NCBI GenBank assembly: GCA_963786955.1 | Contig: CAWBAT010000005.1 | Location: forward strand, 192,001-256,000 | Source: an uncultured Acidimicrobiia bacterium | Lineage (GTDB): Bacteria > Acidobacteriota > Terriglobia > Versatilivoradales > Versatilivoraceae | Direction of reading: 5' to 3' | DNA length: 64,000 nucleotides | Shown: one piece after another, positions 12,995 to 59,160 of the stretch | How positions within the stretch are numbered: the first letter of the stretch is position 1 | Layout of the letters: the number at the start of each line of letters is the position of its first letter | The notes under the pieces: model-generated | What the model was told of the DNA's origin: nothing | The model's input: only the letters and a program-made list of their open reading frames with translations | The model's database searches: none | Position numbers and translations under genes: made by a program

Positions 12995-13405
12995 TTCTTA
13001 TTCCCCCTTACTTAAAGGGCGCCGGGGGATGTCCTGTTTTGTGAATTCTTCATTTGGCATTCGTCATTCAGCATTTATCATTTCTGACTTTAGACTCTTA
13101 ACCTTAGACCTTTGACCTATTTTCTGCTTTCTGCCTTCTGACTTTTGACCTCAGACCTCTGACTTTCGACGTTTAAGTTTGACCTTAGATCTTGGACAAA
13201 ATTTTTGCGTCCTTTGCGCTCTTTTGCGGCAATACTTGCTTTGACTTTTTCTTTAGGTTTTAGACTTTGGACTTTCGACCTTCGACCTTGGACCCTCGCT
13301 AATCTCCATTCGCCATTCGTCATTTCTGACTTTGGACTTTCAACCTTTGACTCTGAAACTCCGAACTCTTATCCCTGCCTTCTGCTTACTGCTTACTGCC
13401 TTCTG
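12995..13405. repeat. Modular intergenic repeat block
   Basis: Long heptamer tracts, TTTGCGTCCTTTGCGCTCTTTTGCGGC and a 47-bp segment identical to 26398-26444. Confidence 0.85.
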
Positions 13406-18346: not shown

Positions 18347-19511
18347 CTATATTGTGTAACGCGTAACTACCTCCGCCACAAACGTGGCAGCTTCACTTGG
18401 TGAGCGAAAGAGCTTGGGATGATGCTCGTATGCCGCATTCTCTATTTCCGCAAGGCATCTTTTGCCATCACACAGGCTCAAGACTGTAAGCCGAGCTTCT
18501 CCCCTTGATGTAAGCTTTGGCTTGAAATCGGGCTGGGTTCTCTGGAGATCTCTCTTGCCGAGCAACATTCCTTTCCAGGTAGAGTGAGAAAACCAATCTT
18601 TTCTGAAGCCTCGCTCTTTAGTTGATTCCGATGGTTTTTCAAATACCTCTAGTTCCCATGCAACGACCGAGGCCCCAGGTAGAAAATGAATCTTGATCTC
18701 AATCAAATTCCCTTCCGTAACTTTGATGGCCCGTTCAATTGGAAAGAAAAGATGTTTTCTCTGAATGGTATCAGGTCGAAGTGGTGAATTTGTGACCGCA
18801 AAGCTTTCTGACAACTGGGCTGAGAACCAGCCTGCAATTCCGTGAAGTCTACCCGTCCTTCTGGCTGTAGCAGAAGCTTGTAGGCCGAATGGTTTGGCTG
18901 ACACTGTTGTGAGATCCAGAGAAGCCCCCATAACCGGCTCGCTTAGCAATTGTCCGGGTTGAAACGTAAAGCGGTAAGCGCAGTTGACAGCTACTGAACG
19001 TCCAGGTGAGAAATTTAAACCGGTCGACGAGTCGTTCCAGAAGTCGATCTGAGCAAAACTTTCGTCAGCATTCGACAGGCGCAAGGAACAAATCAACCCG
19101 CGCTGGAATCAGTCTTCCCCCAGTTTTCAAAAAGCGGTCGCGAGCGTCACTGAGAGAATCCAATAGGCCAAATTCAGGACCGAATCCAATCTGGTCAGCA
19201 ATGACGACATCAACCTTTTCTGGAAGGTCCACCCGCATAGAAAGGTCCTTGATGAAGACCACTCTATCCTGATACCCGTTGATCTCGAAAAGTTGGCGGG
19301 CCAGTTCAATGATTGCCCCTTCCTCAATCGAATAAATTCGTCGAGCTCCCGCCTGGCAGGCCAAAAGGCCGAGAATGCCTGTTCCCGCTCCAAGATCGAG
19401 AACAATATCTCCGGGTTTGACAACCTGAGCGATTGCTTGGCGAAAGGCCGAGACACGTACCTCATCTGCCAAGTAGTGGCGGTGCTCATGGAGAATCGCT
19501 GAGAAATCCAT
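18347..19511 (-). CDS. PRMT-fold SAM-dependent methyltransferase with a C-terminal PqqD/RRE-like region, frameshifted at about 19065
   Basis: VLDLGAGTGIL, LPEKVDVVIADQIG, GRLIP and GRLHGIAGWF; tail LSLCDGKRCLAEI; the two ORFs join at GAA-TGC-TGA / GCT-GAC. Confidence 0.75.
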
Positions 19512-19546
19512 TTCTTCTAAAACAGTCCCCCCTCTTCACCCACCAC

Positions 19547-19717
19547 TCATACCATGCCCATCCCGGATAGGCCGTCGGGAACTGAGCCATTTTGCCCCCG
19601 AGTCAGCTTGGAAACGCTTCCGTAATCCAGCAATCTGGGGCTAGCATACACTTTCTTTCCCTTATTTTTTTCTTCACGTTCTTGCATCGTTGGATGGATA
19701 TCCGGTAACTGGTGCAT
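19547..19717 (-). CDS. Lasso peptide precursor, 56 aa: MHQLPDIHPTMQEREEKNKGKKVYASPRLLDYGSVSKLTR-GQNGSVPDGLSGMGMV
   Basis: Hand-translated; AGGAG RBS at 19726-19730; leader motif YxxPxLxxxGxxxxxT with Thr at -2; core begins with Gly and has Asp at position 8. Confidence 0.92.
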   Translation of the reverse strand: MHQLPDIHPTMQEREEKNKGKKVYASPRLLDYGSVSKLTRGQNGSVPDGLSGMGMV

Positions 19718-19743
19718 AATGATTTCTCCTTCAGAATTTGGTC

Positions 19744-21696
19744 TCAGACTGCATGAAGAGCGACAGCCGCCTTAAGCGTCTCACCCTGACGCGGCAAATC
19801 TTGCCTGTTCAAAAAAATGGTGTTGAACCAAAGTTCGATGCCAAAAATCATCCATAGTGGCCAAATGTGTCTAACATCATCCCCCTTGTTGTAGAATTGT
19901 GTCATTTCCTGATACATATGCCGCACACTGTTTTCGGCCACCCATCCCTGAGATACTAGGCTTAGCGAATCCCAGAGCTGCTCGGCGCCGAGAGTCTGGA
20001 ACGTCTCGACAAAAAGATGGGTGAAATCCGCTTTTGTGAGTCGCTGGCGTACTGTTTCAGGCAAATAACCTTGGCATGCCTGGCGAAGAACGAATTTGTT
20101 TTGGTTACATTGGAAGCGCTGGTCTTCTGGCAGTGCCAGTGCAAATTCAACAACCCGCCGATCATGAAGTGGGTGCCGCCCTTCTAATCCATGCCACGAT
20201 GCTTCGCGTTCTTCCATCTCGCTGGCGTGGACCACAAAACCATTAGTCGCTGCCAGATAGATTTCCCAGGGGGCAAATCCTAACGGTGATGGGCGCATCG
20301 CCTTTGTTTCAATTCGCTCAGCAAGTCGTGTTCGACCAGCAAAGCCTCTCTCGATCCAGCCGGGAGTAGGCCGTCTGTTCTCCTTTCCAAGCATTCGCCT
20401 AACCCTCGAGCGCGCACTCTGGGGAAGCAGTGGCCAGAGGCCGTAATGTAATAGTCGAGACAAGGTAACAGCAGCTCCTTCAGTTCGGAACACAAATCCG
20501 AGCTCTCGAACTAATTCTGGAACTTTGAGCCGCTGCAAAAGGTCGGCATAGCGGTACCGGCTGCCCCCCAACCACTCATCACCACCCACTCCACTCAGCA
20601 CGACGCGGATCCCTCTGTCCCTAACCAGTTGGTTCACCGGGTTCGCAGTGCCGCCATTAGGATAACCGGGAAAATCTTGGTATCGCTGTGTTCGCTCGGA
20701 ATATAAGCTGAGTTCGCCGACGTGATGGCGAGTCGAGTGCCACCTGAGATGCCATATCTTGATAACGTCATTTATATAGGCGCTCTCATCGCAGGGATAA
20801 CCGGGATAAATTGTAGAAAAAGCCTCTATCTCGGAGATACAAGAACTTCCTTCCTCTGCAAGGGAAGCGGCCACACCTGCAACTGACGACGAATCCAGCC
20901 CTCCACTCAGCGACACTCCCACTGGCGTGGTGCTCCGCAGACGACAGCGCACAGCCTCTCTGAAAATCTCCAGAAAGTGTTCAGCATAGTCTTCGTCCGA
21001 CTCGTAGCGAATCTCTGGGCATGGATCGATGGACCAGTAGCGTTGTTTCCGGAATGAACTGGGACTGAGTCGCAAGTAGTGGGCTGGTGGCAGCCGGAAG
21101 ACATTTTGAAAGAGCGTCTCCTCTTGATGAGTGATAGCACTCGCCAAATATTCGGCAATCATACCCTCATTCGGTTTACGTCGAACTAAGGGGTCGATAA
21201 AAAGCGGAGGCAACTCGGAGGAAAATAGAAATGCCCGGCCCGTGTTCACATAGTAGAACGGCTTTAATCCTAGAAAGTCTCGAGCGCAGAAAAACACCTG
21301 TTGCCGCTTGTCCCAAATTGCAAAAGCAAAGTCACCAATGATTCGCTTCGGGCACTCTTCTCCCCAGCAATCGTAGGCCTTCAGGACTAGTTCAGCATCT
21401 GTATCATCTCGAAGCCTGCCGCCTTTGGCTTCAATGGCAGCTTTCAACTCGTCTCGATTATCGACACGCCCGTCAAGCGTAAGACAGAGATTGCCGGTTT
21501 CATCAAGCAGGGGCTGTTTCTCGTGAAGGGCCTCAGGCGTCGTGCAAAGCATTTGATGACCAAGCCCGACCGGACCGTCAATCCAGTACCCCACCCCGTC
21601 AGGCCCGCGGTGTGAAATCGCGTCGGTCATCCGCTGCAGTAACCTGCGATCAACGGGAGCCCCATCCAAATTATAGATGCCAGCAATGCCGCTCAT
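19744..21696 (-). CDS. Lasso peptide cyclase (asparagine synthetase-like C protein)
   Basis: AsnB fold with SLSGGLDSS and SGVGGDEW; N-terminus MSGI lacks the catalytic Cys; flanked by B1, B2 and precursor genes. Confidence 0.88.
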   Translation of the reverse strand: MSGIAGIYNLDGAPVDRRLLQRMTDAISHRGPDGVGYWIDGPVGLGHQMLCTTPEALHEKQPLLDETGNLCLTLDGRVDNRDELKAAIEAKGGRLRDDTDAELVLKAYDCWGEECPKRIIGDFAFAIWDKRQQVFFCARDFLGLKPFYYVNTGRAFLFSSELPPLFIDPLVRRKPNEGMIAEYLASAITHQEETLFQNVFRLPPAHYLRLSPSSFRKQRYWSIDPCPEIRYESDEDYAEHFLEIFREAVRCRLRSTTPVGVSLSGGLDSSSVAGVAASLAEEGSSCISEIEAFSTIYPGYPCDESAYINDVIKIWHLRWHSTRHHVGELSLYSERTQRYQDFPGYPNGGTANPVNQLVRDRGIRVVLSGVGGDEWLGGSRYRYADLLQRLKVPELVRELGFVFRTEGAAVTLSRLLHYGLWPLLPQSARSRVRRMLGKENRRPTPGWIERGFAGRTRLAERIETKAMRPSPLGFAPWEIYLAATNGFVVHASEMEEREASWHGLEGRHPLHDRRVVEFALALPEDQRFQCNQNKFVLRQACQGYLPETVRQRLTKADFTHLFVETFQTLGAEQLWDSLSLVSQGWVAENSVRHMYQEMTQFYNKGDDVRHIWPLWMIFGIELWFNTIFLNRQDLPRQGETLKAAVALHAV

Positions 21697-22286
21697 ATCC
21701 GGTTCACTTCCTGCAAGAGGGTTGGATCAAAAGGCGAGAAGCGCTCGTGAATGTCGCTGCCCTCATTGAGAGGTTGTCCGAAGCACTCCACCCAGGCGTG
21801 GGCTTCAAGTAAAGCTGCTTCTTTACGCACACCGATTCGCAAGGTGCTCTCCATCCCATTCCGCCGCAAAAACCACCAGGTAACAAGCGACTGCTTGAGG
21901 CAGTTGGCCCGAAAGGGGCCGTGGTTAGCCGCGAGCCTCACCACTCTGGCAACGAGGGCTGCCTTGGCTTCGAGATCGGAGGGGCGAGAGCCTTTAGAGT
22001 CCACGGGAGTCAGTGGTTCGCTAGGGACACACCCCGGCACGCTCCCGCTTGCCACCCCTCTCAAGAGGGGACTTCTAGCCATGTCACCACCCCCTAGTCC
22101 TTCGAACAGTTCCTCCCCCTGTCTGTGTTCGAATGAAGGAGAAGCCCTTTGGGCTAGAAAAGAATAGATCCGCCGGAAGCCAAGGATGCGCATGGCCAAG
22201 GCCGCGAGTGGGAGCAGCAGCAAGGCCTGGAAAAAGATTTGCTTTTCTAAACGGCTCAGTTGAATAAGCTTGAAGAGTTTATTCAT
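21693..22286 (-). CDS. Lasso peptide B2 leader peptidase (transglutaminase-like)
   Basis: NCLKQSL (Cys), LRIGV and AHAWVE (His) motifs; carries an in-frame palindrome-derived insert. Confidence 0.9.
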   Translation of the reverse strand: MNKLFKLIQLSRLEKQIFFQALLLLPLAALAMRILGFRRIYSFLAQRASPSFEHRQGEELFEGLGGGDMARSPLLRGVASGSVPGCVPSEPLTPVDSKGSRPSDLEAKAALVARVVRLAANHGPFRANCLKQSLVTWWFLRRNGMESTLRIGVRKEAALLEAHAWVECFGQPLNEGSDIHERFSPFDPTLLQEVNRI

Positions 22287-22563
22287 CCTTAATCTCGACC
22301 AATTCCTGGTCCACTAGTTTTTGAAGTAAATCTTCCAGGTCTTTTCGAAGAATCTCGGGCTCCACCTCATATTCTGACAACAAGGTGTCATACGCTTCTT
22401 GCAGCGAGGGAGCTGTCGTCAAGACAGTCCACATGCGAGTACCCATTTCATCCAGTCCAAAATAGCGTTCGCTTTTAAGGCTGAGTATCACCGATTCACT
22501 ACCAAGAACATTGATGAGAGTATCCGATGGGATGGAAACGCGTGTTGTATTCGTTATGGTCAT
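22279..22563 (-). CDS. Lasso peptide B1 / PqqD-family RiPP recognition element
   Basis: 94 aa, ESVILSL..ERYFGLDEMGTRMW...EYEV..E.LRKDL..LL..L; AGGAG RBS. Confidence 0.9.
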   Translation of the reverse strand: MTITNTTRVSIPSDTLINVLGSESVILSLKSERYFGLDEMGTRMWTVLTTAPSLQEAYDTLLSEYEVEPEILRKDLEDLLQKLVDQELVEIKDE

Positions 22564-22599: not shown

Positions 22600-22852
22600 G
22601 AGGACATAGAAAATGGGCGGAGTGCACGCGGATAAACACGGGAACGATTAACCGCCAAGAACGCCAAGTACGCAGAGAAAAATGAGCCGCAAATGGAAGA
22701 TGGCGATTGGCGATTGAAAAGCTAACTCTCGCAAAGAACGCAGAGTGCGCAAAGAGAAATAAAAGAGTAAGTGTCGTCAATTAGACCTTGGGCCTTGTAC
22801 TACGGACTTTTGACCTCCTAACTTGCAATTGCTTTTTGCGTTTTTTGCGCCC
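22600..22852. repeat. Modular repeat block whose last module is interrupted by the DUF1670-like cassette
   Basis: CGCAAAGAACGCAGAG-type motifs, then TTTTTGCGTTTTTTGCGCCC, which resumes as TTTTTGCGGCGATA at about 24562. Confidence 0.75.
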
Positions 22853-22961
22853 TTATAGTTGTGCAATATTGCTTATTCTCTTGCCCCTGGCAGGGAAGGA
22901 GCCCGAAGGGCGACTGGAATGCCAGGGGCAAGAGAACTCATTTCGACAGCAGGAGCCCCTC

Positions 22962-23786
22962 TTGATCAACAACACCAGTTTGCAACGTTGGGACCGCATC
23001 AGTGCTAAATCCATTGACACTCAATTTAAGACCGCCATGCAGCGGGGGCTGAATTGTTCCCCTTTCGAAGCCCAGATCATGGTCGAAAAAGTCCATGAAC
23101 TTTATGGACCCTTGTTCGACAACTCAACCACTGTGCAGCCCGGACAGATTCAACTCATGGTAGTGGATGCCTCTGTGCCTCCCGGTGTTCCGCTGTCCCA
23201 AGCTGCTCAGAAGCTGGCCACCCTCACCCTGCTGGATAAAGAGGAAGACAACCAGATCCAGCAGCGGCAAACCATCCCGGCCCTGCGGCAACATCGTCTG
23301 ATGCGAGTTGCCGAAGAAGCCTTCCAGCAAGGGGGTCTGCTGACTTTGGAGGATCTGGCCCTGTTGTTTAATTGCGGCCTGCGCACTTTGGTTGGCGACT
23401 TGGCCGCATTGCGCCAGCAGAATCTGGTGCCGCCTCTTCGTTCCACCGTCAAAGACATCGGTCGAGCTGTAACCCATCGCCGCCTGATTGTCTCACTGTG
23501 GCTGGAAGGCAAAGAGTATTCCGACATCGCCTTGCATTCTCATCACAGCGTTTCTTCAGTGGCCAACTACGTGGAAAAATTCAAACGCTGTGCCGCCTTG
23601 CTCCAACATGGCTTTGATCTGACGACCACCGCTTTCCTGATTCGCTTGTCCGCCCCTTTGGTGGAGCAATTCCGCCAGTTGCATCAGACGGCCAAACCGG
23701 CGGTCCACCGGCAGCAGGAACTCTTGGGCTTCTTAAAAAAAAGCTCAGCCGATCTGCCGAGCCGCCCAACCCGGAGGTCCCAGTGA
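22962..23786 (+). CDS. DUF1670-like HTH protein 1
   Basis: RVAEEAFQQGGLLTLEDLA..F...RT...D and P.RSTVKDIGRAVTH; likely TTG start at 22962 after AGGAG (22951-22955). Confidence 0.7.
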   Translation: MINNTSLQRWDRISAKSIDTQFKTAMQRGLNCSPFEAQIMVEKVHELYGPLFDNSTTVQPGQIQLMVVDASVPPGVPLSQAAQKLATLTLLDKEEDNQIQQRQTIPALRQHRLMRVAEEAFQQGGLLTLEDLALLFNCGLRTLVGDLAALRQQNLVPPLRSTVKDIGRAVTHRRLIVSLWLEGKEYSDIALHSHHSVSSVANYVEKFKRCAALLQHGFDLTTTAFLIRLSAPLVEQFRQLHQTAKPAVHRQQELLGFLKKSSADLPSRPTRRSQ

Positions 23787-24532
23787 ATCCTCCGGCCCAA
23801 TCCATAAAACATTACCGCTCTGCTCAAAACCGCTTTCTCCGCCCTTCCATCCAGCGGTTTTTGCAAAGCCAGTGCCCCAAGCTTTTTGGCCCCTTGCTTG
23901 CCGAACGTTTGGCGGAAAAAATTGTCGAGCTAGTTGAAAAACAGTTGCCCCATAAAGATCATCTGCAGCCGGGCCAGATGGTCTGGAATGCGGTCTCTCA
24001 ACAATCCAGACCTAACAGCCCGAACCTGCAATTGCTCCCAGTCCTGTTGACGTTGGTCGATCCTTCCGATGTCGAGCAACTGGCAAAGGGCTCCTCGATG
24101 ACAACCATCGCTAAAAAGGCCATCGCCCGTATTTGCTGCGAGGCCCATCAACAAGGCGCCTTGTTGACCATGCGGGATATCGGCCTTTTTTGCTGGCGGC
24201 AAAACTCGAGGCTTTCCTCCTTGCGGGCTGCCTGGGAAAAAGAACATGACACCACTCTCCCACACAGCGGCAGTTTGCAGGACTTTGGCTCTTGTATCTC
24301 TCACAAAAAAACCATCGTCAAAAAGGCCATCCTTGACAAAAAAGACCCGAAACGGATCGCTCTCGAAACCAAACATTCACAAAAGGCCGTGGACCGCTAT
24401 CTGAAGGATTTCCATCGGGTCAAAACCTGTTTCCAACACAATCAAAGCCTCGAGTTCATCGCTCAAGTCACTGCCTTGTCACCTTTCCTGGTCAAACAAT
24501 ACGTGGAGATAATCAATGCCTCTAATCTCTAA
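23783..24532 (+). CDS. DUF1670-like HTH protein 2
   Basis: RICCEAHQQGALLTMRDI, PHSGSLQDFGSCISHK and HSQKAVDRYLKDF; GTGA overlap with the upstream paralog. Confidence 0.7.
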   Translation: MNPPAQSIKHYRSAQNRFLRPSIQRFLQSQCPKLFGPLLAERLAEKIVELVEKQLPHKDHLQPGQMVWNAVSQQSRPNSPNLQLLPVLLTLVDPSDVEQLAKGSSMTTIAKKAIARICCEAHQQGALLTMRDIGLFCWRQNSRLSSLRAAWEKEHDTTLPHSGSLQDFGSCISHKKTIVKKAILDKKDPKRIALETKHSQKAVDRYLKDFHRVKTCFQHNQSLEFIAQVTALSPFLVKQYVEIINASNL

Positions 24533-24655
24533 AAAACAACTTGATACGCAATATTGCCTAATTTTTGCGGCGATAGCTGCTTTAGGCTTTTGACTTTCGA
24601 CCTTAGACCTTAAACCTGCCTTCTGTCTTTTGACTCCGGACTCTTGGAACTCTGA

Positions 24656-26152
24656 TCAATTCACTCTGGTAAAGGCACCGGCTGCTTTGGCGCGGACCGC
24701 CTCGCGGTTATCCCGCTCTGCCGTCTCCTCTGCTACATCACGCACAACCTCGCGAACGGATCCCTGCAATCGCTCGCGCAGGCCGCGGTGCAGCACCTCG
24801 ACAAAAGGGGCTACGATCATTGCATTATTGCCAGACTCAAACTTCCGGGTGAGATTGATATAACCAAAGCCATCCAGAGGAATCCTCAAGTGCCAGCAAT
24901 TATCCACCGTTTCCGTCCCTAGTTGTGCTTCGAAAACCTGTTCCAGCAAATGGCAGCGCACTTCGATGAAACCAAGGCTCTGGCAGGTTTCTCGAATGGC
25001 ACTCCAGAAATCTTCAACCGTTTTGGCTGCGGCCAGCGTCTCTTCAAAGCGCCGCAGGAGCAAATGCCCGCTCAGCATGCGCCGGAAAGCCCCTGCCAGT
25101 ACCAGGCGGCGGGCGACGCCGAACTCAACATAACCCAGGTGTTGCACCCCAACCCAGGTAACCGCGCAAAACAGCAGAATGATGAGCCCCTGGCCCCGGT
25201 TTTGCAGAAAACCTTGGAGTAACGAGAAGGCGGCTCCGAGCGCGCATAGCCCGTAGAGAACCAAAGCGACACGGCGGGGAGTGAATCCGCGATCAAGCAG
25301 ACGATGATGGATGTGTCCCCGGTCTGCCTTGAAAAGCGGCTCGTGGTGCAGATAGCGGCGCACCACCGAAAGGCAGACATCCAGAAGCGGAATGGCGAGG
25401 GTCATGAGGGGTGCGGTCATGCCCAGAAAGGTGGCGGACTTCTGGCTCCAGATCACCCCAAAACAGCCCAGCAGAAAACCAATCAACAGACTTCCGGAAT
25501 CCCCCAGGAAAATGGAAGCGGGATTGAAATTGTAACGCAGAAAACCCAGCAACGCACCGGCCAGAGGAATTGTGGCCAGAGCCAGCGGCACATTTTTCTG
25601 CAGTAAGGCGGCAACAAACGTCGTGACGGTGGCAAAGAGTCCCAGGCCCGAAGCTAGCCCGTCCACCCCATCAATCAGATTGAAGGCGTTCATGCAAGCT
25701 ACTAGCCAGAGAAGCGTCAGCGGCAATGTCCACCACCAGCTATCGGCGCCATGTCCTGCCACTGATAAGATGCGGACGCCGGCCCAGTAAGCGAGTAATG
25801 AAGCACTCACCTGGCCAACCAACTTTTGCCAAGGTCGCAACCCGAACAGGTCATCCGCCAGACCGACGGCGAAAATCAGGGCAGCAGCGGGCAAGAGCAA
25901 CAGAGCCTGATGAATATTTTTAGCAATGAGGTTGCCTGCGTTCAATGGGGACAGTAGCAGCAGCCCATAAGCAGCCAGATAGGCCGCTACGATTGGGACA
26001 CCCCCCATTCGCGGAATGGGATTTTGCTGCAGCTTACGCTGGCCATCGGGCTGATCCACCATACCCAGGCAACGAAAAGCGTTTCGGCACAGAGGGGTGA
26101 GGATCAACGAACAGAAAAAAGAAACAATTCCGAGTATGAGAAGTGAATACAT
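24656..26152 (-). CDS. WecA/MraY-family undecaprenyl-phosphate sugar-1-phosphate transferase
   Basis: PRMGG, GLADD, NAFNLIDGVDGL, IFLGDSGS and DRGHIHHRL motifs. Confidence 0.9.
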   Translation of the reverse strand: MYSLLILGIVSFFCSLILTPLCRNAFRCLGMVDQPDGQRKLQQNPIPRMGGVPIVAAYLAAYGLLLLSPLNAGNLIAKNIHQALLLLPAAALIFAVGLADDLFGLRPWQKLVGQVSASLLAYWAGVRILSVAGHGADSWWWTLPLTLLWLVACMNAFNLIDGVDGLASGLGLFATVTTFVAALLQKNVPLALATIPLAGALLGFLRYNFNPASIFLGDSGSLLIGFLLGCFGVIWSQKSATFLGMTAPLMTLAIPLLDVCLSVVRRYLHHEPLFKADRGHIHHRLLDRGFTPRRVALVLYGLCALGAAFSLLQGFLQNRGQGLIILLFCAVTWVGVQHLGYVEFGVARRLVLAGAFRRMLSGHLLLRRFEETLAAAKTVEDFWSAIRETCQSLGFIEVRCHLLEQVFEAQLGTETVDNCWHLRIPLDGFGYINLTRKFESGNNAMIVAPFVEVLHRGLRERLQGSVREVVRDVAEETAERDNREAVRAKAAGAFTRVN

Positions 26153-56869: not shown

Positions 56870-57735
56870 AGGTCAGAGTTTTAGAGTTCGGAGTGAAAAT
56901 AAAAGGTCCAAGGTCTAAAGCTTAAAGCAAAAGCTAAAAGCAAATGTTGCCGCAAAGAAGCGCAAAGGGCGCAAAGATTTGCAACAAACTGGACCACGGG
57001 GAACACGGGGAAAGTCAAGAAAGCCGCAGATGGACGCGAATAAACGCGAATCAAAACTAGATCACAGGTTAAAGGTTCAAGGGCGAAGGGCAAAAAGTCC
57101 GGAGTATGGAGTCCGGAGTCAAAATAAAAGTTCAAAGGTCGAAAGTCAAAAGCCTAAGGCAAAAGCGAAAAGCAAATATCGCCGCAAAAGAACGCAAAGA
57201 CACAAAGAAAAAGGGCCGCGAATTGACGCGAATAAACGCGGATAAAGCCAGAAGGAAAAAAGTAAAAGCAAATGTTGCCGCAAAGGAGCGCAAAGGGCGC
57301 AAAGATTAACAACAATGGACCACGGGGAACACGGGGAAAGTCAAGACAGCCGCGAATGGACGCGAATAAACGCGAATCAAAACTAGATCACAGGTTAAAG
57401 GTTGAGGTTAAAAGTCCAAGGTCAAAGGTCTGACAATTGTCGAATGGCGATTGCCGAGTGTCGATCTAAAAGCTAACTAACGCAAAGGACGCAAAAAAAA
57501 GAGTCAAAGGTCGAAGGTCTAAGGTCGAAAGTCAAAAGTCACAAATGAAAAATGGAAAATGATGAATGACAAATGAAAAACCTCCACCCCCCTGAAGTCC
57601 CCCCATGTGTAAAAAGAGAAGGCAGAAAGCAGAAGGCAGGTACGAGTGAAAAGATCTCAAAGCAGGACATCCCCCCGGCGCCCCCTGTAAGAATGTCCAA
57701 GGTCAAAGGTCGAAAGTCCAAAGTCAAAGGAAAAA
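56870..57735. repeat. Largest modular intergenic repeat block (~860 bp)
   Basis: Two near-identical ~130-bp units (about 56935-57075 and 57263-57402) plus heptamer tracts and hairpins. Confidence 0.88.
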
Positions 57736-58774: not shown

Positions 58775-59160
58775 AAAGTTCGGAGTCCGGAGTTCAATAG
58801 GCAGAGAACAAAAGGTAGAGTGTATAGAGATAAGGGTCAAGGGCGAATTAAGAGGTCGAAGGTCGAAAGTCAAAAGCTTAAAGCAAAAAACTAAAAGCAT
58901 ATATTGCCGCAAGAAAACGCAAAGAACACAAAGGGAGCAAAGATAAACAAAAAAATAAACCACGGGAACACAGGGAAGAACAATATAGCCGCGAATGAAC
59001 GCGGATTAACACGATTCGAGGGCGATTGGGACATCCCCCGGCGCGCCCTTCAGAAAGGGGGAATAGTTTGTAGAAGGGCGAAAGGAAAAGTTCAGAGTTC
59101 GGAGTCCGTAGTCTAAAACTAAAGGAAAAACTAAAGCAAAAAGGGCAAGTACAAGAAGCA
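58775..59160. repeat. Modular intergenic repeat block
   Basis: Same module set as 56870-57735. Confidence 0.82.

Follow-up and report, generated by a model that had tools for sequence, protein, structure and literature searches.

A 1.7-kb mobile element with two DUF1670 genes, inserted at small DNA hairpins

Genes and features of the element

The window, by which we mean the whole 64-kb stretch of DNA analysed here, carries a unit of 1710 bp with two overlapping genes, a hairpin between its left end and the genes, and a short palindrome near each terminus. The element boundaries were refined with unoccupied sites, and the features are as follows.

22854..24563, + strand: mobile element, 1710 bp, each end uncertain by about 3 bases, delimited from copies and unoccupied sites
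22848..22853, + strand: target 5' arm CGCCCT, flanking DNA outside the element, identical at the copy-2 site and at metagenome sites
22854..22872, + strand: left end, with TATAGT (-10-like, 22854-22859) at the terminus, then TTGT and the palindrome GCAATATTGC (22863-22872)
22876..22936, + strand: hairpin with a perfect 17-bp stem and a conserved 27-nt loop, and an inner hairpin GCCC-GAA-GGGC at 22901-22911
22962..23786, + strand: orfA, a DUF1670 protein of 274 aa with a TTG start
23783..24532, + strand: orfB, a DUF1670 protein of 249 aa, whose GTG start overlaps the orfA stop
24541..24563, + strand: right end, with TTGATA (-35-like, 24541-24546), the palindrome GCAATATTGC (24548-24557) and the terminal CTAATT (24558-24563)
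24564..24572, + strand: right flank TTTGCGGCG, the rest of the split repeat module, with a weak GGCG partner of the 5' arm

The original prediction, made from the letters of the window, had placed the ends at 22853-24561, which is within 1-2 bases of 22854-24563 as derived from copies and empty sites. It had also described the clean split of a repeat module, and the rejoined flanks indeed give the local TTTGCG..TTTTGCGGCG module without duplication. The two ORFs lie on the + strand and the lasso genes (PqqD-like, transglutaminase-like and Asn-synthase-like) on the - strand, so the antisense arrangement proposed for them holds. The element is located 290 bases upstream of the first gene of the lasso-peptide operon and may affect the expression of the operon. 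It contains 3 terminator-like sites on the - strand, and shuffled sequences give 3.2.

Both ORFs encode full-length DUF1670 (PF07900) members, with profile matches of E 4.6e-39 (134.5 bits) for orfA and E 1.1e-47 (162.7 bits) for orfB at a cut-off of 25. They are paralogous as had been claimed (28% identity, E 4e-20), and their coupling is seen in the GTG of orfB (23783), which overlaps the TGA of orfA (23784-23786). With its TTG start at 22962, orfA encodes an N-terminus (MINN) that is shared with 27 homologues. The dN/dS ratio is 0.05-0.09 for orfA (9 pairs) and 0.05-0.12 for orfB (8 pairs), that is, strong purifying selection. No known transposase or recombinase was found in the ORFs by Pfam, NCBIfam or PHROGs, in line with the first reading of the sequence; NCBIfam gave no match near a cut-off for either ORF, and PHROGs gave nothing under E 0.2.

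The AlphaFold model has a pLDDT of 93.5 and contains just two beta-strands. Residues 105-168 resemble a winged helix (Z 5.2-5.8). For residues 172-220 the likeness is to sigma region 4, at Z about 6 and with an rmsd of 1.4-1.9 across 47-50 residues. In the VIA fold comparison, the whole protein had no match at Z >= 8 and its N-terminal domain none at Z >= 5, and Foldseek against PDB gave 0 matches at E <= 0.001, the best one (9n9q_C, E 0.16, TM 0.18) being set aside. The sole match of a PDB profile search, 8vd6, is a designed HTH repeat protein and was discarded as irrelevant, and ESM Atlas provided just sub-0.9 leads to small archaeal HTH clusters. Judged by the model, both proteins are multi-HTH DNA-binding proteins, and for each of them we infer an N-terminal domain that is helical and includes a beta-hairpin, together with a winged helix and an HTH like that of sigma region 4. 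A serine or tyrosine recombinase domain is absent by Pfam and NCBIfam, and the fold likeness is at the level of HTH (Z < 8), at which a distant relationship is possible. Over 87 diverse members, G169, H174, H198 and Y206 (orfB numbering) are invariant, and D167 is nearly so.

Fused A-B proteins (532 aa) and triple forms exist in the family. The prediction of an A+B complex scored 0.39, against 0.00 for the best of 3 controls. Of 80 solved complexes 58 reach the mark used here, as do 2 of 110 mismatched pairs; at scores of 0.60 or under, just 7 of the 80 solved complexes reach it, together with both passing mismatches. The prediction runs agree in at least 50% of contacts, with a partner pLDDT of at least 68. 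We take this as a weak, model-based prediction of a heterocomplex.

Copies, unoccupied sites and the hairpin target

A search with orfB found 606 homologues, and among the 120 best of them 116 are on contigs under 5 kb; a profile search yielded 1048 protein clusters at 50% identity. The 51 loci are spread over many bacterial phyla and include one archaeal bin. Related units are 1.7-1.8 kb long, and within a genome the copies share 99.3-100% identity while their flanks differ. It turned out that the two DUF1670 ORFs are the sole conserved content, in 48 of 52 loci, and that no outside gene is common to more than 3 of the 52, so relatives do not always come with a separate transposase, a point that the original prediction had singled out for examination. 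Single DUF1670 genes in relatives have a conserved chromosomal neighbourhood and are non-mobile, indicating that the fold can serve as a plain regulator. A literature search gave no paper on DUF1670, PF07900 or IPR012872. The element family is not described in the literature searched, and the link of DUF1670 to a mobile element, together with its target and ends, is worked out here.

The same genome contains two further copies. Copy 2 (C7:144829-146545) lies in unrelated flanks and is 100% identical to the 1717-bp block 22848-24564 of the window, where copy 1 is located, while copy 3 is decayed, at 70%. Unoccupied sites are present at C4, C5 (two) and C6. The rejoined flanks of copy 2 read CGCCCT followed directly by TACAGGGC, and those of copy 3 read CGCCCC followed directly by GATGGGGC, each being the exact unoccupied sequence; as the unoccupied sites are restored exactly by rejoining the flanks, there is no target duplication. 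Besides, C6:617982 resembles the empty counterpart of a site filled in two metagenomes, with a left flank that is similar, not identical. For copy 1, the search for an orthologous empty site gave no match in genome G001, and genome G002 has an unrelated 1320-bp intergenic stretch there. One site retains just the last 6 bases of the right end, which is a deletion scar; an inserted element can be lost, with a scar left behind.

The stretch 22847-24564 is also covered, with other flanks, by metagenome contigs of 1743 and 1760 bp. Contigs from the RNA-library run X12 cover 22969-24564 with the hairpin region uncovered, and such contigs are no proof of transcription. The original prediction had read the locus as a mobile element of which other copies and empty sites were to be sought; both were found, and the two further copies in the genome, the unoccupied sites and the near-identical multi-copy units in other genomes support it. 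The 1.71-kb unit moves as a block, and the element is clearly widespread and active.

Copies 2 and 3 lie head to head within a 500-bp repeat, which could suggest local duplication, and the cassette might then be non-mobile, either a duplicated chromosomal segment or an assembly artefact. We give this reading practically no credence. Copy 1 is in a context unrelated to that of copy 2 and the identity between them ends sharply on both sides, unoccupied sites and a deletion scar exist, the same element has other flanks in independent metagenome assemblies, and the unit occurs in many genomes.

Insertion takes place precisely where the 5' arm of a short, GC-rich hairpin or palindrome gives way to the loop. 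In this lineage the target is 3' of CGCCCT in a REP-like motif, GCCCT-TAC-AGGGC, and the target motif GCCCTTACAGGGC has 16 occurrences in this genome. Inverted repeats of 5 or more bases flank the element at fixed positions in 25 of 31 loci versus 20 of 90 controls, with a sequence that varies by locus and a length of 5-16 bases. The window copy is at an atypical site, which has the 5' arm only and no right arm. We also considered whether these inverted repeats could be the termini of the element itself, and rejected this reading, because empty sites already have both arms, the arm sequences vary among loci, and copy 1 has just the one arm.

Another candidate, a target duplication of 2-4 bases, fits copy 3 (GAT or CGAT) but fails for copy 1. 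It also fails for L029, L031 and L039, three copies which are 99.9% identical and in which the left junction is constant and the right one variable (TCT, TTC and TCC). The model of insertion without duplication is preferred.

Ends, predicted circular intermediate and proposed mechanism

The palindrome GCAATATTGC had been noted near both ends, and its two positions turned out to be its sole occurrences in the window, where the chance expectation is 0.03 and two occurrences were seen in 0 of 100 shuffles. The 10-bp palindromes lie 9 bases inside the left terminus and 6 inside the right, in the same orientation and without a loop, and a motif of T[TA]GTGC plus palindrome is kept in nearly all related loci. 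In the integrated copy, no promoter-like site was found upstream of orfA. When the ends of the window copy are abutted, they read TTGATA-17-TATAGT, and abutted ends give the pattern of a sigma-70 promoter (TTGnnn, 17 +/- 1 bases, TAnnnT) in 27 of 33 loci, which are mutually related, not independent, and whose termini were fixed by rule (palindrome + 6; TTGTGC - 5). As sequence evidence, this junction promoter points to a circular intermediate with its ends abutted. A right-end/left-end junction was found in none of the contigs of 4 runs, and a first degenerate junction pattern had 0 matches over metagenome contigs; contigs seldom contain such junctions. A second degenerate pattern was set aside, as its 2 chance matches over metagenome contigs are AT-rich sequence without similarity to the element.

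The perfect stem (22876-22892 / 22920-22936) and its loop are present in the sequence as the original prediction described them, and the covariance analysis that it had proposed supports the hairpin, with 25 of 27 pairs covarying. The predicted fold of the 79-nt hairpin segment is -46.0 kcal/mol. Among 288 cells of the 12 core stem pairs there are 3 wobble cells and 4 mismatches, the arms being an almost pure Watson-Crick palindrome. The hairpin loop is unpaired and nearly invariant, although targets differ widely. A search of Rfam over 22600-24800 found no known RNA family, with three microRNA chance matches at E 2-4.6. A comparison of the target arm with the 230 non-coding bases on the left gave a mean longest match of 4.70 in own pairs and 4.81 in crossed pairs, by exact matches only, which short split guides could escape. 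The guide hypothesis was dropped at this sensitivity, since own-pair matches are no longer than those of crossed pairs.

We consider it probable that the unit in the window is a copy of an autonomous IS-like mobile element, in which the DUF1670 pair acts on the ends and a circle inserts into hairpins. The universal presence of the two proteins in the family and the dN/dS of 0.05-0.12 argue for them as the mobilising machinery. In the proposed mechanism, the paralogues encoded by orfA and orfB would act together, probably as a hetero-oligomer, binding the 10-bp palindromes near both termini and synapsing the ends, and they would then break and join the strands themselves or directly recruit this activity. 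Excision would produce a circle, and its abutted ends would make up a strong promoter, with the -35 from the right end and the -10 in the first six bases of the left end, 17 bases apart, and this would switch on orfA-orfB. The palindromes would fall in the promoter spacer and over the transcription start of the circle, so that they would also serve as operators. The circle junction would recombine with a hairpin target, and the hairpin after the left end would be a cis-acting part, either as a leader RNA structure or as a DNA hairpin.

A more specific version of this mechanism is advanced tentatively. In this version, the DUF1670 A/B proteins would be a new transposase or recombinase class made solely of helical DNA-binding modules, in which the catalytic role of a DDE, DEDD, HUH, serine or tyrosine fold would fall to the conserved His, His, Asp and Tyr residues. 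The circle would be inserted precisely at the junction of 5' arm and loop, and the hairpin of the element itself would be an obligatory nucleic-acid cofactor, as an origin for the complementary strand, as the place of synapsis or as a structural RNA subunit.

The element could also be mobile with catalysis supplied in trans, by an IS110-family DEDD enzyme, a Y1 HUH RAYT or a Xer-type enzyme acting on REP-like hairpins, with the DUF1670 proteins confined to end binding and regulation. Neither protein shows a recognisable catalytic fold, and IS110-type and Y1 transposase genes are both present in all 5 of the 5 genomes with multi-copy elements, against 6 of 14 controls for each family. Y1 transposases account for 21 matches in this genome. 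As with IS110 and IS200/IS605, insertion is at REP-like hairpins and leaves no duplication. The 500-bp repeat into which copies 2 and 3 are inserted also has a copy at C4, and this contains a fragment of the IS110 type. We nevertheless think a helper in trans rather unlikely, as no such gene is near the element in any of the 52 loci or within about 8 kb of the C7 copies, and as a helper would be needed in every phylum carrying the element. Besides, the element has its own conserved termini and palindromes and a predicted junction promoter for its own genes, and both genes are under strong purifying selection across phyla. Its left non-coding region has neither a known RNA family in Rfam nor guide-like complementarity to the target arm in the exact-match comparison (4.70 vs 4.81 crossed).

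The circular form expected from ends that abut into a promoter would also suit an integrative mini-replicon, that is, a self-replicating circle of 1.7 kb in which the DUF1670 proteins would act as initiator-repressors of the winged-helix type, and complementary-strand synthesis would start from the hairpin as a single-strand origin. The almost pure Watson-Crick arms with a conserved unpaired loop agree with such an origin, and the proteins have a weak fold likeness (Z 5.2-5.8) to DNA binders of the winged-helix or DnaA domain IV type. However, all copies seen are integrated, no junction appeared in metagenome contigs, and the short contigs end in varied flanks, indicating a repeat rather than a circle. 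A tblastn search with orfB gave no match among 72,556 plasmid records, and this reading, which we judge very improbable, leaves the precise integration without a mechanism.

Comparison with known systems

Prokaryotic insertion sequences are classed by the chemistry of their transposases, namely DDE, DEDD, HUH, serine, tyrosine and Cas1. Judged by sequence searches, the sole genes of this element fit none of these classes. If the DUF1670 proteins are the catalyst in the autonomous mechanism that we favour, they would represent a new recombinase type, and their specificity for small hairpins, with insertion that leaves no scar, would make them attractive engineering tools. If they are not the catalyst, the element would have a new way to borrow a host or foreign enzyme. 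Either way, DUF1670 gains a biological context, one more element that targets REP hairpins is added to a small known set, and precise, testable ends, a target and candidate residues are supplied.

The element differs from a MITE or another non-autonomous element in having two conserved ORFs under purifying selection. Among IS3-family elements, IS1397, ISKpn1 and IS911 are examples that insert in REP-hairpin loops or use a circle-junction promoter, with two overlapping ORFs. The element shares the REP-loop insertion and the two overlapping ORFs, and a junction promoter is predicted for it. IS3-family elements have a DDE transposase and make duplications of 3-4 bp, whereas this element has no duplication and no DDE or RNase H-like domain by Pfam or in a model with two beta-strands.

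IS200/IS605 elements (IS608) use a Y1 HUH TnpA, which recognises subterminal imperfect hairpins as single-stranded DNA. Like them, the element inserts directly 3' of a short specific sequence (CGCCCT in this lineage) without duplication, and inside each of its ends, at a fixed distance, it has a small palindrome, both in the same orientation. The hairpin target suggests action on single-stranded DNA, as in IS200/IS605. However, the element has no Y1_Tnp (PF01797), the Y1 genes being elsewhere in the genome, and its terminal palindromes are 10 bp, loopless and too short for stable hairpins. They look more like sites for a dimeric HTH on duplex DNA than like hairpins that fold, and a duplex junction promoter is predicted for the element.

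By analogy, the closest counterpart in behaviour is IS110. Two kinds of difference set the element apart from the IS110/IS1111 elements (IS621, ISPpu9, ISPpu10), which have a DEDD recombinase. As for the genes, it has neither the DEDD domain (PF01548) nor Transposase_20 (PF02371), both ORFs match DUF1670 alone, and there are two paralogous HTH genes, not one recombinase. As for the hairpin, its loop is nearly invariant while the targets are varied, with no complementarity found and no Rfam match, so by the exact-match test it is not a bridge RNA or seekRNA. The IS110/IS1111 elements make no target duplication, use REP-like palindromic targets, have no classical long inverted repeats and contain a structured non-coding region, and their promoter is split between the right and left ends of the circle. 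The element likewise inserts without duplication at REP-like palindromes, has no long inverted repeats of the classical kind at its ends and carries a structured non-coding region between the left end and the genes. For its putative circle, a promoter split between the right and left ends is predicted.

Insertion locus, copies and empty sites

The orfA-orfB pair, the only genes of the element, lies between the PqqD-like gene of the lasso operon and a family-4 glycosyltransferase gene.

Genes at the insertion locus (window coordinates)
22282-22563, minus strand: PqqD-like gene, first of the lasso-peptide operon
22962-23786, plus strand: orfA, full-length DUF1670 (PF07900), E 4.6e-39
23783-24532, plus strand: orfB, full-length DUF1670 (PF07900), E 1.1e-47
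24659-26152, minus strand: family-4 glycosyltransferase gene

The two proteins share 28% identity, and the GTG start of orfB overlaps the stop of orfA, which itself starts with TTG at 22962 to give the N-terminus MINN kept in 27 homologues. Across the 64-kb window there are just two occurrences of the palindrome GCAATATTGC (22863-22872 and 24548-24557; chance expectation 0.03). The element is antisense to the PqqD-like gene and 290 bases upstream of it, with transglutaminase-like and Asn-synthase-like genes following downstream, and any polar effect on the lasso operon depends on the position of the operon promoter. This lasso-peptide cluster (18347-22563, minus strand) contains PqqD-like, transglutaminase-like protease and Asn-synthase-like cyclase genes; a 56-aa ORF after these genes (19547-19717), without Pfam match, could be the precursor, and an arginine-methyltransferase-like gene is apparently split (ORFs 19065-19511 and 18347-19096). 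In G002, a genome of the same genus, the element is absent and 1320 bp of unrelated sequence with small ORFs separate the glycosyltransferase from the lasso genes (locus L085, G002:C20:23062-24382).

The original prediction was of a cassette that had cleanly split a repeat module, to be checked through other copies and empty sites, and both were found in G000, the genome of the window (9 contigs; C4 to C7 are contigs, the window being part of C5). Copy 2 (C7:144829-146545) matches the window element (copy 1) at 100% identity across 22848-24564, beyond which the two diverge sharply into unrelated flanks. Copy 3, 70% identical and with a stop codon in its orfB, lies head to head with copy 2 at a distance of 357 bases. 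No transposase was found within ~8 kb of the C7 copies. Both are hosted by a hairpin-rich repeat of ~500 bp.

The ~500-bp hairpin-rich repeat, five in G000
C6:650406-650903: unoccupied
C4:199348-201536: unoccupied
C5:1306015-1306516: unoccupied
C5:181348-182349: unoccupied
C7:144760-148675: host of copies 2 and 3

The repeat has two hairpin targets in mirror-image positions, both occupied on C7 and empty elsewhere. Unoccupied sites in G000 read CGCCCT-TACAGGGC and CGCCCC-GATGGGGC, each a 5-bp stem with a 3-base loop, and taking the element out after the 5' arm restores them exactly. The window flanks likewise rejoin as TTTGCGCCCT-TTTGCGGCG, which matches the local module recognised earlier, and the clean split was thus upheld. 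Because excision after the 5' arm restores the empty sites or the local module, we place the element at 22854-24563 without target duplication; T runs and a shared base or two blur each end by ~3 bases. A 2-4-base target duplication fits copy 3; it fits neither copy 1 nor a set of three copies (99.9% identical) in another genome, where the left junction is constant and the right one variable (TCT, TTC, TCC). At one "empty" site the terminal 6 bases of the right end persist, and at two more the loop is altered by 1-2 bases, which we read as scars of past occupation.

Two DNA runs from different studies also yield the element: their contigs (1743 and 1760 bp) cover 22847-24564, show 5 differences and run on into other flanks. 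On the right, several of the flanks seen there start with loop and 3' arm (ACAGGGC or ACAGAGC). The site occupied in these runs has an apparent empty equivalent in G000, C6:617982, with a left flank that is similar, not identical. Judged from its sequence contexts, the DUF1670 unit of the window is mobile.

The C4 repeat is interrupted by ~1.7 kb (C4:199650-201343) carrying an IS110-type (PF01548) fragment, and therefore a second kind of element also inserts in this repeat. On C7, an Lhr-type large helicase (C7:138654-143050, minus strand; L095:2655-7051) appears as three consecutive ORFs of 232, 298 and 979 aa, which may reflect frameshift or sequencing errors. Modules of the form TTTGCG..TTTTGCGGCGATA recur across the window and contig, and copy 1 split one.

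Short intergenic modules, TTTGCG..TTTTGCGGCGATA then CTTTTGACTTTCGACCTT
13259-13289 (C5:205259)
57128-57161 (C5:249128)
57508-57538 (C5:249508)
58853-58885 (C5:250853)

Target hairpins, element ends and internal hairpin

A flanking-repeat test was entered by 35 loci, 31 of them scorable (the other 4 had a cut flank or an unrecognised right palindrome). It turned out that inverted repeats 5 bases or longer flank the element in 25 of 31 loci, against 20 of 90 at shifted control positions, counts that are not independent since some scored loci are near-identical copies. One arm abuts the left end, with its partner 8-10 bases past the right palindrome; the arms vary by locus in sequence and length (5-16 bases), and most end in CC or CCT. 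We conclude that the insertion site is the junction of 5' arm and loop of small GC-rich hairpins. The window copy departs from this pattern, its site matching the 5' arm alone (CGCCCT), and is atypical in this respect. Orientation relative to the asymmetric loop is the same in all insertions seen of the window lineage (copy 2 and the metagenome-run contexts). G000 has 16 occurrences of GCCCTTACAGGGC, a REP-like hairpin, spread over at least three distinct repeat contexts. One of two 99.3% identical copies elsewhere (L042:5729-5760 compared with L043) lacks the last ~13 right-end bases; the truncation directly follows an internal CCCGCC resembling the target 5' arm, as if the element had been cleaved at this mimic.

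The plan of the ends is common to all lineages. The left end has five bases (TATAG, TATGA, TATAT or TACTA), TTGT and a 10-bp palindrome of GCCATATGGC type, while the right end has a CTTGACA-like sequence, one or two bases, the same type of palindrome and six bases. With right and left ends joined, 27 of 33 loci yield TTGnnn, 17 (+/- 1) bases and TAnnnT, for example TTGATA-17-TATAGT for the window element and TTGACA-17-TATGAT in five Acidobacteriota-type loci; in this arrangement the spacer of the promoter is taken up by the right palindrome, and the left palindrome overlies the expected start of transcription. No promoter-like site was found upstream of orfA in the integrated window copy. A promoter assembled from abutted ends is a known design of elements that transpose through a circle, and because the ends here form one in the same manner, we infer a circular intermediate, whose right-end/left-end junction would switch on orfA-orfB. 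No such junction molecule was seen in the metagenome contigs and run contigs scanned.

After the left end, a perfect 17-bp stem with a 27-nt loop is present at 22876-22892 and 22920-22936, as originally described, and the covariation suggested as its check was found: across 24 distinct aligned sequences, both partners vary in 25 of the 27 proposed pairs. Paired cells amount to 86.9%; shuffles reach 52.3%, and sliding the partner gives no more than 46.9%. The outer stem (13-23 bp) differs in sequence in every lineage; the loop is constant (GGAAGGAG, an inner 4-bp hairpin, GACUGGAA), except that in Bacteroidota the arms of the inner hairpin are exchanged (GGGC/GCCC for GCCC/GGGC). Only 3 wobbles and 4 mismatches exist in the 288 cells of 12 core pairs, so the arms remain a palindrome of nearly pure Watson-Crick pairing, which would be compatible with a hairpin of DNA no less than with one of RNA. 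The covariance model matches only the three element copies in G000 and 27 of 45 other loci (5 of the 27 outside the training set), and several lineages are without the motif. In a Desulfobacula-bin element with intact ORFs (L065:4064-4142) the loop is inverted relative to all others, and the arms can evidently mediate such inversion, to judge from this one locus.

Family distribution and proteins

The search with orfB gave 606 homologues at E <= 0.001, and 116 of the best 120 are on contigs < 5 kb, as for collapsed repeats. A profile search of 1.84 billion representatives gave 1048 DUF1670 clusters (E <= 0.001), including fused A-B proteins and triple forms, with no native-looking fusion to a catalytic domain among them. 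In species-representative genomes we found 51 loci; the record titles, some of them of bins, which can be contaminated, assign these to Acidobacteriota, Desulfobacterales, Bacteroidota, Balneolaceae, Acidimicrobiia, Thiobacillaceae, a Methanomicrobiales bin and others. The elements are 1.74-1.80 kb long and 99.3-100% identical within genomes, with different flanks. The two DUF1670 ORFs, present in 48 of 52 loci, are the sole common content; other ORF clusters common to more than 3 loci are all shadow frames within the element. The dN/dS is 0.05-0.09 for orfA (9 pairs) and 0.05-0.12 for orfB (8 pairs; the ninth is saturated). Of 61 related genomes, DUF1670 was matched in 8, G000 included. Three of them (G010, G008, G006; loci L019, L022, L023) have a lone DUF1670 gene (225-258 aa open frame) beside the same conserved neighbour, so it is probably non-mobile and possibly a domesticated family member.

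Regions of the orfB structure model (pLDDT 93.5)
1-104: three N-terminal helices and a beta-hairpin
105-168: winged helix
169-249: sigma-region-4 or TrpR-like HTH region

Fold searches with this model gave similarities at HTH level only (Z about 6), and Foldseek gave nothing at E <= 0.001. The N-terminal domain modelled alone (pLDDT 81.3) had no fold match at Z >= 5. No classical catalytic fold is apparent, as the protein has only two strands, although the lack of a match does not prove that such a fold is absent. G169, H174, H198 and Y206 (orfB numbering) are invariant in 87 diverse members of both paralogues. Complex prediction hints weakly at an orfA-orfB complex.

Comparison with known systems

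Named homologue records read "hypothetical" or DUF1670, a literature search on DUF1670, PF07900 and IPR012872 found no paper, and neither protein had an NCBIfam match near the curated cut-off. On the literature and family profiles searched, we rate the DUF1670 element as a putative new element family. A catalyst acting in trans stays a live rival to the element's own proteins, because IS110-type and Y1 genes exist elsewhere in all 5 host genomes checked. In the whole G000 genome, 21 Y1 (HUH) transposase and 8 IS110 DEDD family matches, together with many REP-like hairpins, suggest an active REP/RAYT-type system.

Duplication-free insertion 3' of a short sequence is shared with IS200/IS605, whose Y1 enzyme the DUF1670 element lacks. 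IS110/IS1111 elements are characterised by REP-like targets, no duplication, a junction promoter and a structured upstream region. The DUF1670 element lacks the DEDD recombinase that defines the IS110 family, and a complementarity comparison found no guide-like relation of its hairpin to the target. It nevertheless resembles IS110/IS1111 in its REP-like hairpin targets, absence of duplication, predicted junction promoter and structured non-coding region upstream of the gene, and its behaviour is closest to that of IS110/IS1111.
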